Counted from the stretch's first letter, positions 23,983 through 46,973 are shown. The stretch: DNA of 64,000 nucleotides from Escherichia phage FEC14 (MG383452); one strand, 5' to 3'. Numbers and translations: made by a program. Notes: generated from the letters alone by a model not told the origin.

Positions 23983-24777
23983 TTAGCAGAAACTCTTGTA
24001 TGCTGCCGCCAGTTTAGTATCATACTGGTTTTTCGCATATGCCGGACCATTGTACCGACGAGCAAACTCGGCCCAATTCTTGTTCTTCAGGGCTTTCCAC
24101 ATATTGGCATCAGCCTTGATGAACTTGACAAATGCCAGAAGATGAGCGCGTTCACCAGTCAGGAAATCAGTGAACATCTCTTTGGCATTTGAATAGCCAC
24201 AGATTTGGCAGTTGAACCCCATGATCTGGAATAGGCCGTAGGAAGCACTCTCGTAAGCGCAGTCCTCGTCAAGGGCGATTGCACCCTGAAGGCGTTCCAA
24301 CTCCGCGTCTCCGCCGATATACCCGCCAGAATTGGGGTTAACCAATGTTGGGTAGAGTTGGTACAGAGCATTGGCTCTTGCTTGCCCGAATTTGGCCGTC
24401 ACCTTTTTGTACATGATGTGGCGCTCAAACAGAGTTTTGATCTTGCCAGTTTTGGTAAAACCCGTGCCACGGGATTCTACCTGGTTCACCGCTTTCATAC
24501 TGGCCAGCTCAACACCAAGTTCACGTGCTGCGTCAACCAAGTCCGCTTCGGTCAGATGTTCCTGGTGAGCGTCTCCAGCGTTGCGGATAGCATAGAAGGT
24601 CTTTGGCCCAGCAATACCATCAATAACCAATCCAGCACCTGCCTGAACGGATTTGACGGCATTCTCTGTTGCCTTACCAAATATGCCATCGGCTGTAAGA
24701 GAGAAACCGATTTTGTTGAGGCTTTGTTGAAGTGCTTTGACTTCAGAACCTCGGTTGCCAAGTTTTAGAATGGCCAT
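23983..24777 (-). CDS. endolysin: N-terminal peptidoglycan-binding domain plus C-terminal N-acetylmuramidase-like domain
   Basis: GSEVKALQQSLNKIGFSLTADGIFGKATENAVKSVQ (PG_binding_1-like) and YGLFQIMGFN catalytic region; ATG 24777 with GGAGG RBS. Confidence 0.7.
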   Translation of the reverse strand: MAILKLGNRGSEVKALQQSLNKIGFSLTADGIFGKATENAVKSVQAGAGLVIDGIAGPKTFYAIRNAGDAHQEHLTEADLVDAARELGVELASMKAVNQVESRGTGFTKTGKIKTLFERHIMYKKVTAKFGQARANALYQLYPTLVNPNSGGYIGGDAELERLQGAIALDEDCAYESASYGLFQIMGFNCQICGYSNAKEMFTDFLTGERAHLLAFVKFIKADANMWKALKNKNWAEFARRYNGPAYAKNQYDTKLAAAYKSFC

Positions 24778-24846
24778 AAGAAAATACCTCCGCAATGTAT
24801 GCGAAGGTATTTAAAGTGAAAGTCGAACTTGAGGATTTAGTGTCGA

Positions 24847-25035
24847 TTATCTGACTACGACGATAGGCATGATTTCTTTGAAGGAAGTCCTAACTTCGGA
24901 ATCATACCCATATTTTTCAAATATTTTCAACATCGCTTGTTCCAGTTCCTCTTGGAACTGAGGAAAGTGCGCGTTGGGAATTCGGTCGGCAACCCATAGA
25001 GCGCCAGGAGAGGCTTGGATAATTGCTCTACTCAT
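24847..25035 (-). CDS. hypothetical protein (62 aa)
   Basis: strong AGGAGA RBS upstream of ATG. Confidence 0.45.
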   Translation of the reverse strand: MSRAIIQASPGALWVADRIPNAHFPQFQEELEQAMLKIFEKYGYDSEVRTSFKEIMPIVVVR

Positions 25036-25060
25036 GTCTCATTCTCCTACCAAAACTTTG

Positions 25061-25082
25061 AAAGGGGGAGGTTTCCCCCTTG
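25061..25082 (-). terminator. rho-independent terminator
   Basis: GGGGGA-GGTT-TCCCCC hairpin with flanking T-run on minus strand. Confidence 0.5.
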
Positions 25083-25085
25083 CGG

Positions 25086-25574
25086 TTAAGCCAGTTTGTT
25101 CACCAGAGTTTCTACTGCGTCGGCGCTCAGTTTACCCATTTTGACATACTGGGATTTCGCTTCACCGCCAGCGGCTTTCACGATATCGCTGTTGTCATAA
25201 CCCTTTTTCGGGAATACCATCACGGAGAAGGTTCCGTTGTTCAGCGGGTTCAGCTGAATGCGACCTTTACCGACTACGATGGTGCCGTAAGTTTCGGTGT
25301 TCGCTTCGACAACGTGGATGTCATGGCCCAGGTCTTTCAGCATGCCAACCTTGTCAGCAGTCTTGGCAACCACGGCTTTGTCTACGACAACCTGCTCTAC
25401 CAGGGTGAAGCCGTTGGTCGCTTTCACTTTGCCGTTCAGCAGATTCATGAAGGAAGTTTTGCCACCAGTGAAGCCAGCTGCCTGAGCGATGCGGAACATT
25501 TCAACTTTTGCAACTTCGGTGTTCAGTTCAAAAGAGATGGTGCCGTTGGTGATCAGAGTTTTGGTAGTAGCCAT
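25086..25574 (-). CDS. hypothetical protein (163 aa), probably abundantly expressed
   Basis: ATG 25574 with GAGGA RBS; high-expression-like codon usage; own terminator; tracked ORF begins at upstream GTG. Confidence 0.5.
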   Translation of the reverse strand: MATTKTLITNGTISFELNTEVAKVEMFRIAQAAGFTGGKTSFMNLLNGKVKATNGFTLVEQVVVDKAVVAKTADKVGMLKDLGHDIHVVEANTETYGTIVVGKGRIQLNPLNNGTFSVMVFPKKGYDNSDIVKAAGGEAKSQYVKMGKLSADAVETLVNKLA

Positions 25575-25711
25575 GATGTAATTCCTCATAATGTAGTTGG
25601 GTCGTTTCACTTTTCATTCGGCGGGGTGTTGTGTACCGCCCTATGTGAACTATAATAGTGCATGATTATTGAAGAGTAAAGTCTTTTTCAATAAATTTTT
25701 AAATTATTTTT

Positions 25712-25745
25712 GAAGTATTTTAAAAGGCCTCGTAGAATGAGGCCT
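25712..25745 (-). terminator. rho-independent terminator
   Basis: AGGCCTC-GTAGAAT-GAGGCCT hairpin followed by TTTTAAAAT on minus strand. Confidence 0.45.
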
Positions 25746-25773
25746 AGAGAGAAGGTTTTTGAGTTAAAAAGTT

Positions 25774-25983
25774 TTAGGTCGGCTTCTTTTTCAAATACTG
25801 GCGAGCCAAATTCATTTGTTCTTCAGTGATAGGACAACCGCCGAAGTCCACCATTCCGTTCCTCCAACCATGGATGAAACTCTTAGATTCTAAACCAGAT
25901 AGGACATATCCTTCACGGGCTTGCATATACCCGCGAAGAATCTCTTCATCGTCCATACTATTCAGTTCTTTCAAATCCATCAT
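25774..25983 (-). CDS. hypothetical protein (69 aa)
   Basis: ATGATG start overlapping primase stop (ATGA coupling); GAGGA RBS. Confidence 0.45.
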   Translation of the reverse strand: MMDLKELNSMDDEEILRGYMQAREGYVLSGLESKSFIHGWRNGMVDFGGCPITEEQMNLARQYLKKKPT

Positions 25984-27044
25984 ATCTTCCTCAAGTCAGA
26001 AAATCGTAAGGACGCCGACAGTCCCTGATATACGTTCTTGGCTATGATCTGAAGCAGATCCCGTATCGGGATATTTCCCTTGTCGGGGCGAACCATATCA
26101 TTGATATCCTTCCACGGTATTTCCGGTGGAAACAGAACGACTTTGACTCCGCTGTCTATCATCTTCTGTATACCGTCACAAACTTGTTTGTTCCTGTATT
26201 GGTTATCGGGGATATAGATGTCTCCCTTAGCACTTAATAAGTCGGCATCGGCAGTCGCAAGACAATTAGGTAGAAACAAGCTATCAATTGGACCTTCTAC
26301 TACCAACTTTGTTTTGTTCCAAATGATGCGCTCTTCCCCGTAGATTTTAGTGTCTTCGTTCTTAGGCTTGACAGTGGCATACCGTAATACCCCATCAGGA
26401 AGGTTATCGCCGAATGCGCGCCCCTGAACTATCTTCATGCGCCCGTCTTGGGTCCAGAATGGGATTACCAGCCGCTCATCTTCGGGTATCTTCTTTTGCT
26501 TCTCAACATCCGTTTCGAAACTCAGAAGATCTTGACGAAAATTCCTGCTGTAATACAACAAAGATAACGTGCTCTCCGGCATTCCCCTGCCTTCAACGTA
26601 ACGACGGGCGATATGATCACGGTCAAGAAGATCAAGGCGTATCATATTCCCAAGGTGCTCTTCATCTCGTTTGGCGACCTGAGAACCGATACGCGCTGTC
26701 TGGGTCAGGCGCTGTAGTGGTTTGAGTTTTTGTAACGGGCGGGAACTGGTATCCCCCATGATCCTGAATTTTTCAAGGTTGTATTCATTATACAGACGCT
26801 CGTCAAACTTCTTCAACCAGAATTCAAACGCCCAACCGCTCATTTCATTACAGTTGTGGCACTTGAAACGAAACACATCGTCATCACGATCATAAAAGAA
26901 GTGACCACGACGCTTGTTGGCACTCTTCTTAGAATCCCCGCATAATGGGCAACGAAATTTGGCGACAGCGCCAACACGTTCCCAGCTGAATTTATCAAGT
27001 CGGGGGGCGAGAAAATTGATGTATTGTTCGTCCAAGAATTTCAT
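25980..27044 (-). CDS. 61: DNA primase, T4 gp61-like
   Basis: 354 aa; zinc ribbon FRCPLCGDSKKS...FKCHNC; RLVIPF, VVEGPIDSLF, WKDINDM motifs collinear with T4 gp61. Confidence 0.8.
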   Translation of the reverse strand: MKFLDEQYINFLAPRLDKFSWERVGAVAKFRCPLCGDSKKSANKRRGHFFYDRDDDVFRFKCHNCNEMSGWAFEFWLKKFDERLYNEYNLEKFRIMGDTSSRPLQKLKPLQRLTQTARIGSQVAKRDEEHLGNMIRLDLLDRDHIARRYVEGRGMPESTLSLLYYSRNFRQDLLSFETDVEKQKKIPEDERLVIPFWTQDGRMKIVQGRAFGDNLPDGVLRYATVKPKNEDTKIYGEERIIWNKTKLVVEGPIDSLFLPNCLATADADLLSAKGDIYIPDNQYRNKQVCDGIQKMIDSGVKVVLFPPEIPWKDINDMVRPDKGNIPIRDLLQIIAKNVYQGLSASLRFSDLRKI

Positions 27045-41803: not shown

Positions 41804-41830
41804 GAAAAAGCCGAGGCATTAACCTCGGCT
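41804..41830 (-). terminator. rho-independent terminator downstream of HU-like gene
   Basis: AGCCGAGG-CATTAA-CCTCGGCT hairpin, T-run on minus strand. Confidence 0.5.
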
Positions 41831-41890
41831 TCTCCTTTTAGCCTTGCGCCGCTGCACTGCAGACATGCGCTGGGCCGACGCCTGGTGTGA

Positions 41891-42252: not shown

Positions 42253-43047
42253 TTATTTGCCGACGTTTAGCATTTTACTTGAGCCTGAACCATCAACAAT
42301 CAGAGTACATTTCCCGCTGTTGGCGCAAGATTGCAACACCATGTTATATTCGTGTTGTAAATATTCAGGTGTCAGAGATGTCGTCAGTTTCTGATTCGCC
42401 CTGGCTTCTTGGTCTCGAATTTCAACGTTCTTTCTTGCTGTATCCAAACGTTTGTCGGCCATGACATTATCACGGATAGATTGCTCAATCGAAGGATCTG
42501 TCAGCGCCTTTTTGACCAACACGCGTGTGATTGTGAACATGCCAGGTGCAGCTGTTTCTAATTGCTGCTGGGTGCGTTCCTTGATCATCTTTTCTAACTC
42601 AGCCCGTTGGGTGTGAATTGTCATAGAATCCAAAGAGGAAACGGCGTCCATCGTTGAGGATGCTGCGGCGGTTTTAACCAGGTTGAATCCCACCGCTATC
42701 GTGCCGTCACCGAGTTCAGCGCTCTGACCTGCAAATTTGGTATGGAACCAAGGAACCTTCGCGACGTTCGGTGTGTAATAAACGTCCACATCCAGATCTT
42801 CCAAGGTCAGGTTGTCTTTGGCCTTTGGCGTCATTTTCGTCAGACTCACAACGGCTTCTTTGGTCGTGTAAACATCCACGCTTGAAACAAAGCTGGTGTA
42901 GATCCCCGCTGTTACAGGGTTCATGTCTACTTCACCCCATTGGGTGCGAACGCCGACATTACCTTCATCGATAACGCCACCACAACCAGAAAGTAGACTT
43001 GCAGCCAGAACCATAATTGCACCAAACACCAATTTCTTGAACATCAA
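42253..43047 (-). CDS. lipoprotein with SPFH (band-7/HflC)-like domain
   Basis: signal peptide plus lipobox LLSGC; VIDEGNVGVRTQWGEV...AGIY resembles SPFH N-terminus. Confidence 0.45.
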   Translation of the reverse strand: MMFKKLVFGAIMVLAASLLSGCGGVIDEGNVGVRTQWGEVDMNPVTAGIYTSFVSSVDVYTTKEAVVSLTKMTPKAKDNLTLEDLDVDVYYTPNVAKVPWFHTKFAGQSAELGDGTIAVGFNLVKTAAASSTMDAVSSLDSMTIHTQRAELEKMIKERTQQQLETAAPGMFTITRVLVKKALTDPSIEQSIRDNVMADKRLDTARKNVEIRDQEARANQKLTTSLTPEYLQHEYNMVLQSCANSGKCTLIVDGSGSSKMLNVGK

Positions 43048-43262
43048 TGTACCCCTTCAAAAATGTAGATATATGCACCCAATGTGAGTGCAGTTATTGT
43101 AACCGAAGAAATCAGCAGTAGGAAAGTTACTCTCACCCGTTTGCGCCAACGTTTACTTCGGTAGATTTTAGTCTCTTTCAAGTATTTGAAAAAGAAAAAT
43201 AAAATGAATGTTGAAATTACGAATATGAACAGATAACGGATTAACCCGATCATATTTCCCAC
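43044..43262 (-). CDS. small membrane protein (72 aa, two predicted TM segments)
   Basis: hydrophobic segments separated by KYLKETKIYRSKRWRKR. Confidence 0.45.
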   Translation of the reverse strand: MGNMIGLIRYLFIFVISTFILFFFFKYLKETKIYRSKRWRKRVRVTFLLLISSVTITALTLGAYIYIFEGVH

Positions 43263-43570
43263 CCTGTGCTACGCAGATGATCAAAATAATCGTTGAGTTC
43301 GTCAATATCTTCGATATCAACCCAACGATCATCCAGACCCATATCATTTAGATCTTCTTCAGTCAGATCATGTTGGTATATTTGAACGCCGGAAGCATTA
43401 CAATAATCCGGCTTGATGTTATTGTTATACTGAAACAGGTCGTAATCAGCCAGAGTATTCTTCAGGCGCTGCGCTTCTTCAAATGTTGGAACCTCAACAT
43501 GAAAAGCGATCCCAGGAACCTGGGGAATATGCCAAACGCGAAATTTAAGTTCAAACGGTTTATTCGACAT
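43250..43570 (-). CDS. hypothetical acidic protein (106 aa)
   Basis: ORF track. Confidence 0.4.
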   Translation of the reverse strand: MSNKPFELKFRVWHIPQVPGIAFHVEVPTFEEAQRLKNTLADYDLFQYNNNIKPDYCNASGVQIYQHDLTEEDLNDMGLDDRWVDIEDIDELNDYFDHLRSTGWEI

Positions 43571-43889
43571 GGGGTTCTCCCTGAGACAGTATGGTTTTCA
43601 TCTGTTCACGCGTGATAATTGTTTCAACAAGATTCTCGTCAATCATCATTTCGTTTAACAGTTCACAACCCAGCACGTGTGGTCGCGCCATATACGGCAT
43701 CGTGTTGAGTTTTTCTTCTATGTCAAGAACGCGCTTGACAGTCAGACCCATAGAAGAAAAGGGAACAGGATAAAAGAATGAAATGATCTGATTATCCATC
43801 CCGTTTGAAAATCTTACCAACAATACATCACACCATACGCCGGACATATTACACCTCCAGACGGTTACAATGAGAAAGCGCGTTATCAA
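43560..43889 (-). CDS. hypothetical protein (109 aa)
   Basis: ORF track. Confidence 0.4.
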   Translation of the reverse strand: MITRFLIVTVWRCNMSGVWCDVLLVRFSNGMDNQIISFFYPVPFSSMGLTVKRVLDIEEKLNTMPYMARPHVLGCELLNEMMIDENLVETIITREQMKTILSQGEPHVE

Positions 43890-44538
43890 TCTGTTCCCGA
43901 GACAGATATTCCAACGGGTTGCGAGAATACGCGTCTAACAGCAGCAGTTGGAGCACAGCGCGATTACGAGTTTCACTCTCCATCATGATACCGTTCATAT
44001 GTGGTGAACGGGCTGTCCATACAACATACTGACCTAAATCGTCGTTGGCAGTCAGGCTAATGCGAAACTGATTACACAATTTGTCGATTAACGCATAATC
44101 ATATGTGAACGTCCCTTCAGTTTTCCAGCTTGATTTCTTCACCTGAAGAGCTTCACCACGAGTTCTGAATTCTAACGTCACTCCATGAGTTTCATTGTCG
44201 AAATGAACAACTCTCTGAGTTTCATTTTTCAGAGTCCGGTTCATATTATGTACGAAGAAACGGGCGTCGATCTCCCTATTGCTCATGGAATTAAAATCGA
44301 TCGGCCAAAAACGAGCGCGCATAATCGCGCCTTCTGGCAATACAATTAGTCCATTTTCACGGGAGACATAGCAAAGACGTTTAACTGCAGGGTCAGGATG
44401 TTCCACACAATAAACGGAAATTCCAGTGGGAAGGATAGCGTGGGCGACAACACCAGATCTTTCAAAATATAAATTACCCTGGTCAGCCCCGATGATAATA
44501 CGGCTCTTGTTGTTCATAATACGGCTCTTGTTGTTCAT
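43849..44538 (-). CDS. hypothetical protein (229 aa) with duplicated start region
   Basis: ORF track; N-terminus MNNKSRI-MNNKSRI encoded by a perfect tandem 21-bp duplication. Confidence 0.45.
   Translation of the reverse strand: MNNKSRIMNNKSRIIIGADQGNLYFERSGVVAHAILPTGISVYCVEHPDPAVKRLCYVSRENGLIVLPEGAIMRARFWPIDFNSMSNREIDARFFVHNMNRTLKNETQRVVHFDNETHGVTLEFRTRGEALQVKKSSWKTEGTFTYDYALIDKLCNQFRISLTANDDLGQYVVWTARSPHMNGIMMESETRNRAVLQLLLLDAYSRNPLEYLSREQIDNALSHCNRLEV
44497..44538 (-). repeat. perfect tandem duplication, 21 bp x 2 (AATACGGCTCTTGTTGTTCAT), spanning a start codon
   Basis: seen directly at 44497-44517 and 44518-44538. Confidence 0.8.
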
Positions 44539-44595
44539 AATATAGATCTCTCAAATAAAAGGCGGTTTAATAATAACCGCCCTAATGTTATTGAA

Positions 44596-45390
44596 TTATT
44601 TTATATCACCGACATACATGTTCAAACTTTCATCCCATTCTAAACGAACACGAATAGTGCCAGAATCGTTTGGGAAAGACAATTTGTCGCACATATGACG
44701 ATTTGCATATGTTCCGCTCTTATTAACAGGATAATCTTTACCTTCACCGATTGCGAATCGTTTGAAGTTCCGACTCACCATCATATTGATGTTAGGCCAC
44801 TGCAATTGTTCCCGTAGGGTTTTGCACAATATAATCTTCCCATTAGACCGGAAAGACACGAATAAATCATTTGGTGAAGAAAATCGCCTTTCTTGCGGGC
44901 ATAATTGCCTGATTGAAATAAATTCAGATTCTTCTTTATTCTCAACTGGAGACTTCACGGGTTCTTCTTTTCGTTTTTCTGCATATTGCTCAACAGCCTT
45001 TTGGCTGACAGGCGGCAGATCAATAGAAGGGGAGATGACTGCGGGCTTAACGACTGGTGAAGTACGAGCAGCAACAAGTTTTTCCTGAGCTTCCAGAATT
45101 CTCTCTTGGCGAGATTTTGGTCGAGTATCAACCTTGGAGCTGAAATCACAAACCGTAACCCAATCACCCTGATCATTGCGCTTGGCAACCAGAGTCAGTT
45201 TATAGATGATGCCCTGCAGCTTGCTTTCGCGCATAGTGTCTGCGAACCAGAAAGCACAACCCTGCTCGAACTTTTCAGCGAAGATGACGCGTCCGTCTTC
45301 GTGAATCAGAATGACCTTTGCTTTGTTGGGCGCGAACATCTTATTCTTTTCAATGATCGATTCGGCGATCTTTTTGGTAATAATCATCAC
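44596..45390 (-). CDS. hypothetical protein (264 aa)
   Basis: ORF track. Confidence 0.45.
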   Translation of the reverse strand: MMIITKKIAESIIEKNKMFAPNKAKVILIHEDGRVIFAEKFEQGCAFWFADTMRESKLQGIIYKLTLVAKRNDQGDWVTVCDFSSKVDTRPKSRQERILEAQEKLVAARTSPVVKPAVISPSIDLPPVSQKAVEQYAEKRKEEPVKSPVENKEESEFISIRQLCPQERRFSSPNDLFVSFRSNGKIILCKTLREQLQWPNINMMVSRNFKRFAIGEGKDYPVNKSGTYANRHMCDKLSFPNDSGTIRVRLEWDESLNMYVGDIK

Positions 45391-45437
45391 GAAGTATTTC
45401 CTTTCAGTTCAATGGAAGTTAAATTTTAACCTGAAAA

Positions 45438-45758
45438 TTATCTTTGATTTCCAACGAAATTAGTCGCTATTTCCCGACACATAGTCAGATCTTTGATCGT
45501 CTGTTTGCTATTGTCGGCAGCGGACTCCATCATTGGCAAATCCAAAGCATTCTCTATTTGATCCACGCTGTAGAGATCAAGGCGTTTCAACTCACCTTCA
45601 TAATCTGATAAAAGGATGGATGTATCTTTATCATCAGGGTGAAATTGTTGATAAGTAGACAACCAGGCCGCACACATATTCAATTTGCTAGCCGGAGTTG
45701 CCACAACTTGGAATGATGCCAACATAGAAAAGAATAACAAGAATATTATGTTTCTCAT
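45438..45758 (-). CDS. small secreted protein (signal peptide)
   Basis: N-terminus MRNIIFLLFFSMLASFQVVA typical cleavable signal. Confidence 0.45.
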   Translation of the reverse strand: MRNIIFLLFFSMLASFQVVATPASKLNMCAAWLSTYQQFHPDDKDTSILLSDYEGELKRLDLYSVDQIENALDLPMMESAADNSKQTIKDLTMCREIATNFVGNQR

Positions 45759-46444
45759 CTTTCGTTCTCCTTCATCATATTATCACAGTCAATTCTTGTT
45801 TGCTTGAGTTCACGGGCAAGCCTGGGATCATCAAGATTGACAGACAAATTAGTGGAAAGATCTTTCAAACCATTCTGAACACGGTCTTCATAATAATGAT
45901 CATTTTCCACCAGCCATGCTCTCAGGCCAAGGGCGCGAGTCCGCCATTCCTTTTTCAAACGTCGATCTGATTCTTGATCAGCACTGTATTCAAATACTCG
46001 GATACATTGGTTGCCATCATTGATGAGATCCAGCTGACGTCGGCCAACCTGCACACCTTTTTGTAATGCTGGAGAAGGAAGAGAACGGCACTGTCTTACG
46101 GTCATTCGTCCTTGTGTGCCCATACGACCAGTCATGATGAGATCGCCAGCCTCCATGCCTCCTCGATTAAATTCTTTGTCGTTCATATATCCTTTCAGGT
46201 TGAACGCGCCTTGCTTATATCGATTAAACTCAATACCAGCATTTACAACGGCATCTGTGACATTACCTGTGGCCCAGAGTTCAGCAAAGTTCTCTATGGA
46301 ACCAGTTTTGTCTATAGCGACGGCTTGGGAGAACCCAGCACAGTAGGAAAGATCAGACCACAGTTTTTCACCTGTGGAGTTCAGCTTGGCGGTGGCAGGA
46401 AGTGCCAGACCAGCCAGCACAACCCCGATGATTAAACGTTTCAT
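45755..46444 (-). CDS. secreted protein (229 aa) with signal peptide
   Basis: ATG 46444 with AAGGAG RBS; MKRLIIGVVLAGLALPATA signal; tracked ORF extends upstream. Confidence 0.45.
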   Translation of the reverse strand: MKRLIIGVVLAGLALPATAKLNSTGEKLWSDLSYCAGFSQAVAIDKTGSIENFAELWATGNVTDAVVNAGIEFNRYKQGAFNLKGYMNDKEFNRGGMEAGDLIMTGRMGTQGRMTVRQCRSLPSPALQKGVQVGRRQLDLINDGNQCIRVFEYSADQESDRRLKKEWRTRALGLRAWLVENDHYYEDRVQNGLKDLSTNLSVNLDDPRLARELKQTRIDCDNMMKENER

Positions 46445-46523
46445 GGTGATTCTCCTTATTTCATTGGATAAAATGATAGGGCTGTCACCATGTTGAGTAA
46501 AGGGTTTCAATAAACTATCGTAT

Positions 46524-46973
46524 TCAGAAACGGGTATCGCTGACCGTTCTGTATCGCACACCCTGAAACTGTTTAGCGAGTTTAACAAATTCCATCGCTG
46601 GCAAATCAACTTTGTAGACCTTCATGCGCTGTTTGCCGTCCATGTTCAACGCAGCGACAAATCGGTGAGACCCGTCAACAACGTAATTGTCAGAAGACAC
46701 CCAAACTCGACCCATGGGCTTCTTATTTCTGATCTGCTTCATAATCTTCCAGACCTTCATTTTATTGATTTCGTTCTGGGTAAGACGAAGCATTTTGATG
46801 GGCACTTGCGCAGCATCTATGGACACGCCGTTGTCTTCAAGATATTTGTGAAAATCTTCTTGTTTGTCGGCATCGATTTGCGGCATAGAAGAACGAGAAA
46901 GCCCGAGGTTCCCAACAGGAATCCTCAGGCCATTTATGATATTCATCCAGTCAATAAAGGATGTAAGGAACAT
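46524..46973 (-). CDS. ParB/Srx-fold nuclease-like domain protein
   Basis: 149 aa; YVVDGSHRFVAA resembles the DGxxR core of ParB-like/DUF262 nucleases. Confidence 0.4.
   Translation of the reverse strand: MFLTSFIDWMNIINGLRIPVGNLGLSRSSMPQIDADKQEDFHKYLEDNGVSIDAAQVPIKMLRLTQNEINKMKVWKIMKQIRNKKPMGRVWVSSDNYVVDGSHRFVAALNMDGKQRMKVYKVDLPAMEFVKLAKQFQGVRYRTVSDTRF

Follow-up and report, generated by a model that had tools for sequence, protein, structure and literature searches.

Two groups of SPFH proteins come closest to the subject of this report, a pair of overlapping genes for a putatively lipid-anchored SPFH protein and a small membrane protein in Escherichia phage FEC14 (MG383452). The stretch of this genome that was analysed, 64,000 nucleotides long, is called the window in the following. 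In HflK/HflC and in the prohibitin-like proteins of the groups SPFH3 and SPFH4, the subdomains SPFH1 and SPFH2 are followed by a coiled coil and C-terminal strands, and the SPFH domain lies directly on the periplasmic face of the membrane; these periplasm-facing proteins have no NfeD partner (PMC2636767). In the SPFH-NfeD operons, among them QmcA-YbbJ and YqiK-YqiJ of E. coli and the archaeal stomatin-STOPP pair, a gene for a small membrane protein is located directly upstream of the SPFH gene and is coupled to it.

SPFH genes have already been noted in the T4-like phages 44RR, Aeh1 and RB43, in Burkholderia phage CSP3 and in an N4-like phage, and the BFVD database contains them from many phages and giant viruses. 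The reason for their presence in phage genomes was described as unclear in a paper of 2026 (PMC13239085), and the literature searched contained no study on the function of a phage SPFH protein. Most of the genes treated here were annotated before. What is new is a subfamily of lipid-anchored, predicted periplasmic SPFH proteins with an almost constant two-helix partner, both encoded in a mobile and dispensable cassette; no description of such a two-gene cassette was found in the literature searched.

The SPFH lipoprotein

The SPFH/Band-7 lipoprotein is encoded at positions 42253-43044 on the minus strand of the window and comprises 263 amino acids (aa) from the ATG at 43044, the longest open reading frame (ORF) reaching back to a TTG at 43047. 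Its N-terminus, MFKKLVFGAIMVLAASLLSGC|GG, contains the lipobox LLSG-C22 with a glycine at position +2, and two further cysteines (Cys241 and Cys247) lie near the C-terminus. Residues 25-209 match the Pfam profile Band_7/SPFH (PF01145, E=1.3e-12, 48.6 bits with a cut-off of 23.6), and the protein belongs to phrog_200, a family labelled 'lipoprotein' (E=7.5e-58); RefSeq records name the gene either 'lipoprotein' or 'SPFH domain protein'. A profile built from 34 homologues had no sequence-level match in the PDB.

The fold became apparent from an AlphaFold2 (AF2) model with a predicted local distance difference test (pLDDT) score of 85.5. In this model a signal helix is followed by a beta-rich SPFH1 and an alpha-beta SPFH2 subdomain, a first coiled-coil helix (CC1, 39 residues, 185-223), a second one (CC2, 227-243) and two terminal strands. 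Foldseek matched it with a probability of 1.00 to prohibitin, which was the best hit, erlin, stomatin, HflK/C, QmcA (8z5g) and flotillin, each over about 230-285 aligned columns (E 1e-13 to 1e-7) at an identity of 10-18 %. The lipobox protein with an SPFH-like region described in the earlier note is thus confirmed; the note's restriction of this region to the N-terminus does not hold, however, as the SPFH architecture extends over the entire mature protein.

Of 120 SPFH homologues, which range down to about 40 % identity, 113 retain the lipobox, mostly in the form L-[ST]-G-C, and the lipidated cysteine precedes the first conserved strand by only 6-7 residues. A membrane attachment directly before the SPFH domain, as in HflK/C, is therefore predicted here in a variant form, namely as a lipid. 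Most of the seven homologues lacking a lipobox (six, of about 300 aa) show the HflK/C arrangement itself, an N-terminal transmembrane (TM) helix that follows basic residues. The C-terminal cysteine pair is present in 83 of the 113 lipobox members in contrast to one of the seven others, as would be expected if the former reside in an oxidising compartment. From these features the SPFH domain is predicted to be periplasmic and pressed against a membrane.

All of the structural relatives found by Foldseek have been solved as rings or cages that abut a membrane. Since the phage protein displays the full architecture of these cage-forming proteins, including the CC1, CC2 and C-terminal elements that build the cages in the solved relatives, the model suggests that it most likely assembles in the same manner and that the resulting ring or dome would enclose a patch of membrane. 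In comparison to HflK/HflC, it is anchored by a lipid and not by an N-terminal TM helix, its CC1 is short (about 39 residues), and a single gene takes the place of the K/C pair. Furthermore, it is borne by a phage and accompanied by a dedicated two-TM partner, and at 12-18 % identity only the fold class is shared.

The hairpin partner and the distribution of the cassette

The partner gene (43044-43253, minus strand) encodes a protein of 69 aa from its ATG, or 72 aa from an upstream GTG, in which two hydrophobic helices flank the loop KETKIYRSKRWRKRVR. The loop carries ten Lys/Arg residues (KYLKETKIYRSKRWRKRVR), and the tail ..FEGVH at the C-terminus is acidic. Its TGA stop codon overlaps the ATG of the SPFH gene (TGATG), 6 nt upstream of which a Shine-Dalgarno sequence (GAAGGGG) is found, and its own start overlaps the stop of the preceding gene as ATGA. 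Judged by this arrangement, the hairpin gene is translationally coupled to the SPFH gene. The two-TM protein of 72 aa that the earlier note had placed across the SPFH start is therefore present. The hairpin matches only phrog_11680 in the PHROG database, and the corresponding proteins from other loci have no PHROG at all.

The constancy of the pair was surveyed in SPFH loci from metagenomes, IMG/VR, two contigs of bacterial genomes and Erwinia phage Bue1. A two-TM ORF of 54-70 aa is located directly upstream of the SPFH gene in 20 of 22 lipobox loci from outside the genus Kuttervirus, in which the SPFH proteins are 37-52 % identical; at locus L028 another gene intervenes between this ORF and the SPFH gene, which brings the total to 21 of 22. 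The sole SPFH homologue without a lipobox among the surveyed loci (L030) has no hairpin neighbour. In all 22 partners (that of the window and the 21 others) the loop is net positive, with 2-10 Lys/Arg against 0-3 Asp/Glu, and no more than one positive charge is found in the tails; 20 of the partners contain an acidic residue in the short C-terminal tail (for example ..VDHIF, ..VERH, ..LERL or ..FEGVH). According to the positive-inside rule the hairpin is predicted to be N-out/C-out with both ends in the periplasm. A Pfam scan of 16 partners, proteins of only 55-69 aa, revealed neither NfeD nor any other family beyond weak TM noise (E<=0.1). Hairpin and SPFH lipoprotein form a conserved two-gene cassette that is recognised by position and architecture. 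The resemblance to the SPFH-NfeD operons is one of operon logic and not of homology; the hairpin lacks an NfeD/OB-fold domain or any Pfam match and the phage SPFH protein is predicted to face the periplasm instead of the cytoplasm.

The genome around the cassette belongs to a well-sampled group. A region of 4.7 kb shares 99.3 % identity with Salmonella phage FrontPhageNews and 98-99 % with the Escherichia phages PhaxI and CBA120, all of them members of the Vi01/CBA120-like genus Kuttervirus in the family Ackermannviridae, and at least 80 % of it is covered by 159 phage records. Because of this coverage and the conservation of the lipobox, the genes are regarded as real and not as chance ORFs. 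The assumption of a T4-like phage was not strictly correct.

Comparison of genera shows that the cassette moves as a unit. It is absent from Shigella phage Ag3 (Agtrevirus) and Klebsiella phage Zahir (Taipeivirus), where its slot contains an unrelated gene of 82 aa (Ag3) or a gp17 gene together with a small LysM protein (Zahir). In Kuttervirus the cassette comes after the gp17 homologue; in Erwinia phage Bue1 it is found elsewhere in the block, two small ORFs downstream of a gene for a periplasmic protein of 106 aa and upstream of the phrog_3828 gene. The hairpin ORF of Bue1 (L040 4804-4998, 64 aa, two TM segments), which overlaps the SPFH gene from directly upstream, is missing from the GenBank annotation. 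Salmonella phage GG32, a Kuttervirus, represents a natural knockout of the cassette: an in-frame deletion joins residues 1-17 of the hairpin to the final 66 residues of the SPFH protein. Only the C-terminal 20-25 % of the SPFH protein is likewise left in a further three or four records, of which two are from phage selz. As the cassette is absent from Ag3 and Zahir and naturally deleted in GG32, it is accessory and dispensable for a viable phage. GG32 also contains a gene for a LysM-domain protein of 102 aa inserted after gp17, the inserted gene and the fusion together lying at L039 2145-2701; the similar LysM gene of Zahir (L034 6171-6479) occupies the same slot and is labelled 'endolysin'.

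The hosts of cassette carriers are spread over Enterobacteriaceae, Erwinia and Burkholderiales, and uncultured jumbo phages carry it as well. A scan of a genome collection with a narrower alignment yielded two loci, so that its rarity in bacterial genomes is to be read as a lower-bound statement. Twelve cassette loci (L003, L005, L016-L022, L025, L031 and L038) come from contigs with a length of 107-113 kb, the samples and hosts of which differ widely (a contig labelled E. coli, Cupriavidus, Massilia and metagenomes from soil). In at least two of the loci (L003 and L005) an RNase_T gene is found shortly downstream. The contigs appear to represent a single, poorly known lineage of phages of about 110 kb.

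Neighbouring genes and transcription signals

The segment 42253-46444 comprises eight tightly spaced genes on the minus strand. In the direction of transcription these encode a 229-aa and a 106-aa periplasmic protein and the phrog_3828 protein and, after a terminator-like hairpin, the phrog_5426 protein, a DUF7425 protein, the gp17 homologue, the two-TM protein and the SPFH lipoprotein, the last five genes abutting without gaps. The segment is part of an extended block on the minus strand, the genes of which serve replication, recombination and host takeover; among them are those for helicase, HU, RNase H, gp55, gp46/47, ADP-ribosylase and the clamp loader. Upstream of it on the same strand, a 149-aa ORF (46524-46973) matches only positions 316-467 of the 740-position profile phrog_2859 and resembles a free-standing copy of a domain that elsewhere is part of a much larger protein. 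Ag3 and Zahir keep the order 149-aa/229-aa/106-aa/phrog_3828/phrog_5426/DUF7425 upstream of the helicase gene, which in Ag3 is accompanied by HU.

In the earlier note the whole segment was taken for a variable, envelope-targeted island. Only half of it is envelope-targeted, that is four of the eight products, since hydropathy detects neither a TM segment nor a signal peptide in the gp17 homologue and the DUF7425, phrog_5426 and phrog_3828 proteins. Variable is only the slot of the cassette next to HU, as seen in Ag3, Zahir, Bue1 and GG32, and the term island fits this slot alone; the rest of the block (229-aa, 106-aa, phrog_3828, phrog_5426 and DUF7425) is conserved across the genera of the Ackermannviridae. 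The segment is best explained as a composite stretch of an early, replication-side block with the cassette as its distinctive element.

Two of the products, those of 106 aa (45438-45758, phrog_3843) and 229 aa (45755-46444, phrog_4260), both encoded on the minus strand, had been expected to possess cleavable signal peptides, and this agrees with sequence rules. The signals, ..FQVVA|TPASK in the smaller protein and MKRLIIGVVLAGLALPATA|KLNS in the larger, combine a short hydrophobic core with a site of the A-x-A type (12-14 residues and then ATA|K in the 229-aa protein), so that cleavage is predicted for both. The genes overlap by ATGA. The mature 106-aa protein would have about 85 aa; in an alignment of 37 family members this domain is near-invariant, including TYQQFHPDDKDTSILLSD and two invariant cysteines, and the export signals are highly variable. 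Most of these have an A-x-A site and a minority the motif ..AGC.., the cysteine of which is replaced by serine in P0155; a conserved lipobox cysteine was not found in the 37 sequences, and the protein of the window lacks a lipobox. An exhaustive HMMER search identified only ten cluster representatives of this family among 1.84 billion proteins. In P0191, a distant relative of 154 aa, the signal peptide is replaced by a cytoplasmic zinc-ribbon with N-terminal CxxC...CxxC and a TM anchor.

The 229-aa protein has four conserved cysteines and 29 full-length homologues with at least 74 % identity, all on contigs of Ackermannviridae size. In its AF2 model (pLDDT 49), confidence is confined to the C-terminal third, the helical residues 140-228. 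The possibility that it arose by tandem duplication of the 106-aa domain, considered on account of cysteine spacing, was rejected: BLASTP found nothing, and hhalign aligned only 21 columns around the first cysteine with a probability of 14 %. PDB sequence searches (E<=1) gave no match for the 106-aa, 229-aa, phrog_5426 and phrog_3828 proteins.

In database records the 106-aa protein is labelled 'Rz-like spanin' and the 229-aa protein, in some cases, 'i-spanin'. As in Rz/Rz1, two adjacent, overlapping genes encode exported proteins; unlike in Rz/Rz1, the downstream protein has no conserved lipobox, the upstream one has a cleavable-looking signal, and both genes are far from the endolysin gene. 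An o-spanin depends on its lipid anchor. With variable signals and a lipobox that is not conserved, the 106-aa protein appears unfit for this role, and both labels are regarded as unsupported by the sequences.

The gp17 homologue (43250-43570, minus strand) is a cytoplasmic, acidic protein of 106 aa that covers positions 1-98 of the 98 positions of PF17420 (E=1e-49) and belongs to phrog_1510; in Bue1 the homologue is longer (157 aa). It possesses neither TM segment nor signal peptide and stands outside the envelope set, yet carries the database label 'superinfection exclusion'. In P22, gp17 allows the phage to overcome an exclusion system of the resident prophage (PMC9409062). As gp17 counteracts exclusion, the label is misleading, and the homologue is a candidate for counter-defence. 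The remaining genes, also on the minus strand, encode soluble proteins: a DUF7425 protein of 95 aa at 43560-43847 (PF24200, E=2.3e-51; phrog_5397), conserved in Ag3 and Zahir, the phrog_5426 protein at 43849-44538 (E=6e-121, match from residue 8) and a phrog_3828 protein of 263 aa at 44596-45387 (E=1.4e-134). The phrog_5426 protein has 222 aa from the ATG at 44517; a form of 229 aa is possible through a perfect tandem duplication of 21 bp at 44497-44538, minus strand (ATGAACAACAAGAGCCGTATT twice), by which the first seven codons are doubled (MNNKSRI MNNKSRI). The alignment spans 4701 nt in the window, 4680 in FrontPhageNews (+21 for the window) and 4681 in PhaxI (+20), and by this comparison the duplication seems to be either private to the genome of the window or an assembly artefact.

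With regard to transcription, the terminator-like hairpin between the two gene groups (44559-44583, minus strand) consists of a 9-bp stem followed by a T-run and is a consensus match only. A sigma-70-like promoter match (TTTACT-17-TATCAT; 46473-46501, minus strand) closely precedes AGGAGA, the ribosome-binding site of the 229-aa gene, but may serve only as a lead, since the 18 promoter-like sites found are not enriched over shuffled sequences (12.8±3.6). The T4-type late-promoter motif TATAAATA does not occur in the island. Between the HU and helicase genes a strong terminator-like hairpin with a 9-bp stem (six G-C pairs) is present on the plus strand (41808-41831).

The only endolysin gene of the window (23983-24795) is 17 kb away from the segment. 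Its product combines a peptidoglycan-binding domain with a muramidase-like domain. No ORF with a TM segment adjoins it in the region 24800-26000, so that gene order gives no clear indication of the holin in this phage group.

Possible roles of the cassette

The explanation favoured here, still tentatively, is that of a mobile accessory cassette in which a periplasmic, lipid-anchored SPFH ring or cage and a dedicated inner-membrane hairpin remodel or protect the envelope of the infected cell. The two helices of the hairpin would span the inner membrane with the basic loop in the cytoplasm and the two termini of the protein in the periplasm. The SPFH protein, tethered by its N-terminal lipid to the periplasmic face of a membrane 6-7 residues from its first strand, would assemble into a ring or dome enclosing a membrane patch, and the co-translated hairpin would be the dedicated partner or client of this ring, as NfeD is for the cytoplasm-facing stomatins. 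Remodelling or protection of the infected-cell envelope would then be the accessory function. A more specific version is doubtful: the pair might be a widespread envelope device of phages that has so far escaped notice, in which the periplasmic cage fences off a patch of the inner membrane around its two-helix client. In this version the infected cell would gain a particular benefit, such as immunity to DNA injection by secondary phages or control over the time of lysis (lysis inhibition of the CBA120 type).

Several points weigh against this explanation. According to the Asp+2 rule of enterobacteria, glycine at +2/+3 predicts transfer of a lipoprotein to the outer membrane (PMC5727369). Among the 113 lipobox members the +2 residue is Gly in 82, Phe in 10, Tyr in 2 and Trp in 2, and it is never Asp. 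Sorting to the outer membrane, as predicted from these residues, would leave no contact with an inner-membrane hairpin, the periplasmic tails of which are only a few residues long. Seydel and co-workers (1999) reportedly found that lipoproteins may be retained in the inner membrane also with Gly, Phe, Trp, Tyr or Pro at +2; if this is right, the +2 residues of the family would agree with such retention, a point that is not used as evidence here. In addition, the hairpins are only 8-26 % identical to each other without a single invariant column, and their homology is suggested by position and architecture only. Three peptides of the orthologous Sajous1 gp200 were detected in virion mass spectrometry (PMC10892097), which also speaks against the proposed role unless they stem from membrane contamination, the likely source. 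Finally, the biological purpose that the favoured explanation offers stays vague.

Superinfection exclusion, proposed for the membrane proteins already from the sequence alone, would mean that the hairpin blocks DNA entry at the inner membrane like T4 Imm and that the lipoprotein and/or the two periplasmic proteins protect the infected cell against secondary phages in the manner of T4 Sp or T5 Llp. Small two-TM, lipoprotein and periplasmic products among early-type genes of a virulent phage do match the pattern of Imm, Sp and Llp (PMC9409062), the genes sit in the replication and host-takeover block, and the cassette is accessory and dispensable, as is usual for exclusion genes. Moreover, CBA120 senses superinfection, as seen from its lysis inhibition at high multiplicity of infection, by proteins that were not identified (PMC3184105). 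Nevertheless, this role is unlikely, as no similarity to Imm, Sp, Llp or Cor was detected: the genes of the window fall into phrog_11680 and phrog_200 (hairpin and lipoprotein) and phrog_3843 and phrog_4260, whereas the Imm family is phrog_1039 (PMC9409062), and scans of ten proteins with PADLOC and NCBIfam returned nothing relevant. The very different hosts of cassette phages argue against receptor-specific blocking, and the database label of exclusion sits on the cytoplasmic gp17 homologue and not on the membrane proteins. The SPFH fold is not known from any exclusion protein. The cassette is thus not a demonstrated exclusion system. In the favoured explanation it is also not part of the lysis machinery, the endolysin gene being 17 kb away. 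A lysis module, very improbable for this segment, could take three forms: the 229-aa and 106-aa proteins as i-spanin and o-spanin, the hairpin as a holin-like protein restrained by the SPFH protein, or the periplasmic proteins as antiholins in the lysis inhibition of CBA120, the holin and antiholin of which were unidentified in 2011 (PMC3184105). The spanin labels, the ATGA overlap, which is frequent in spanin pairs, the ..AGC.. motif in some orthologues and the holin-like size of the hairpin may be cited in its favour. The A-x-A site of the 106-aa protein and most orthologues, the cysteine that gives way to serine in P0155 and the zinc-ribbon with TM anchor in P0191 do not fit an o-spanin, however, and the 229-aa protein, modelled confidently only in its helical C-terminal third, has a cleavable-looking signal unlike the TM anchor of a spanin. 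The hairpin bears its charge in the loop instead of a cytoplasmic C-terminal tail, and the absence of the late-promoter motif from the island likewise speaks against a lysis function.

By analogy, the phage ring might also engage or replace the host HflK/C cage at FtsH or another envelope protease and in this way alter the turnover of membrane proteins. The HflK/C-FtsH cage is among the fold matches, with prohibitin as the best, the phage lipoprotein is predicted to face the periplasm as HflK/C does, and the periplasm-facing SPFH3/4 groups of bacteria likewise manage without NfeD. Prohibitin pairs with the m-AAA protease, and erlin is linked to RNF170-mediated degradation. Such mimicry seems quite unlikely, however, since at 10-18 % identity to solved SPFH proteins and without a sequence-level PDB match a specific feature for FtsH binding cannot be claimed. 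Sorting to the outer membrane, as predicted, would place the lipoprotein away from FtsH, and a conserved membrane partner of its own suggests a self-contained system.

The mobile envelope cassette thus remains the preferred reading. Independent of its purpose, the corrections of the annotations 'Rz-like spanin', 'i-spanin' and 'superinfection exclusion' concern Kuttervirus genomes that are used in phage therapy and biocontrol. The cassette itself is a defined two-gene unit open to testing, for which GG32 with its natural deletion serves as a control. If the idea of a cage fencing its client is true, a viral SPFH protein would for the first time have an assigned function, and the cassette would be the first system of an SPFH protein and its partner in the periplasm.

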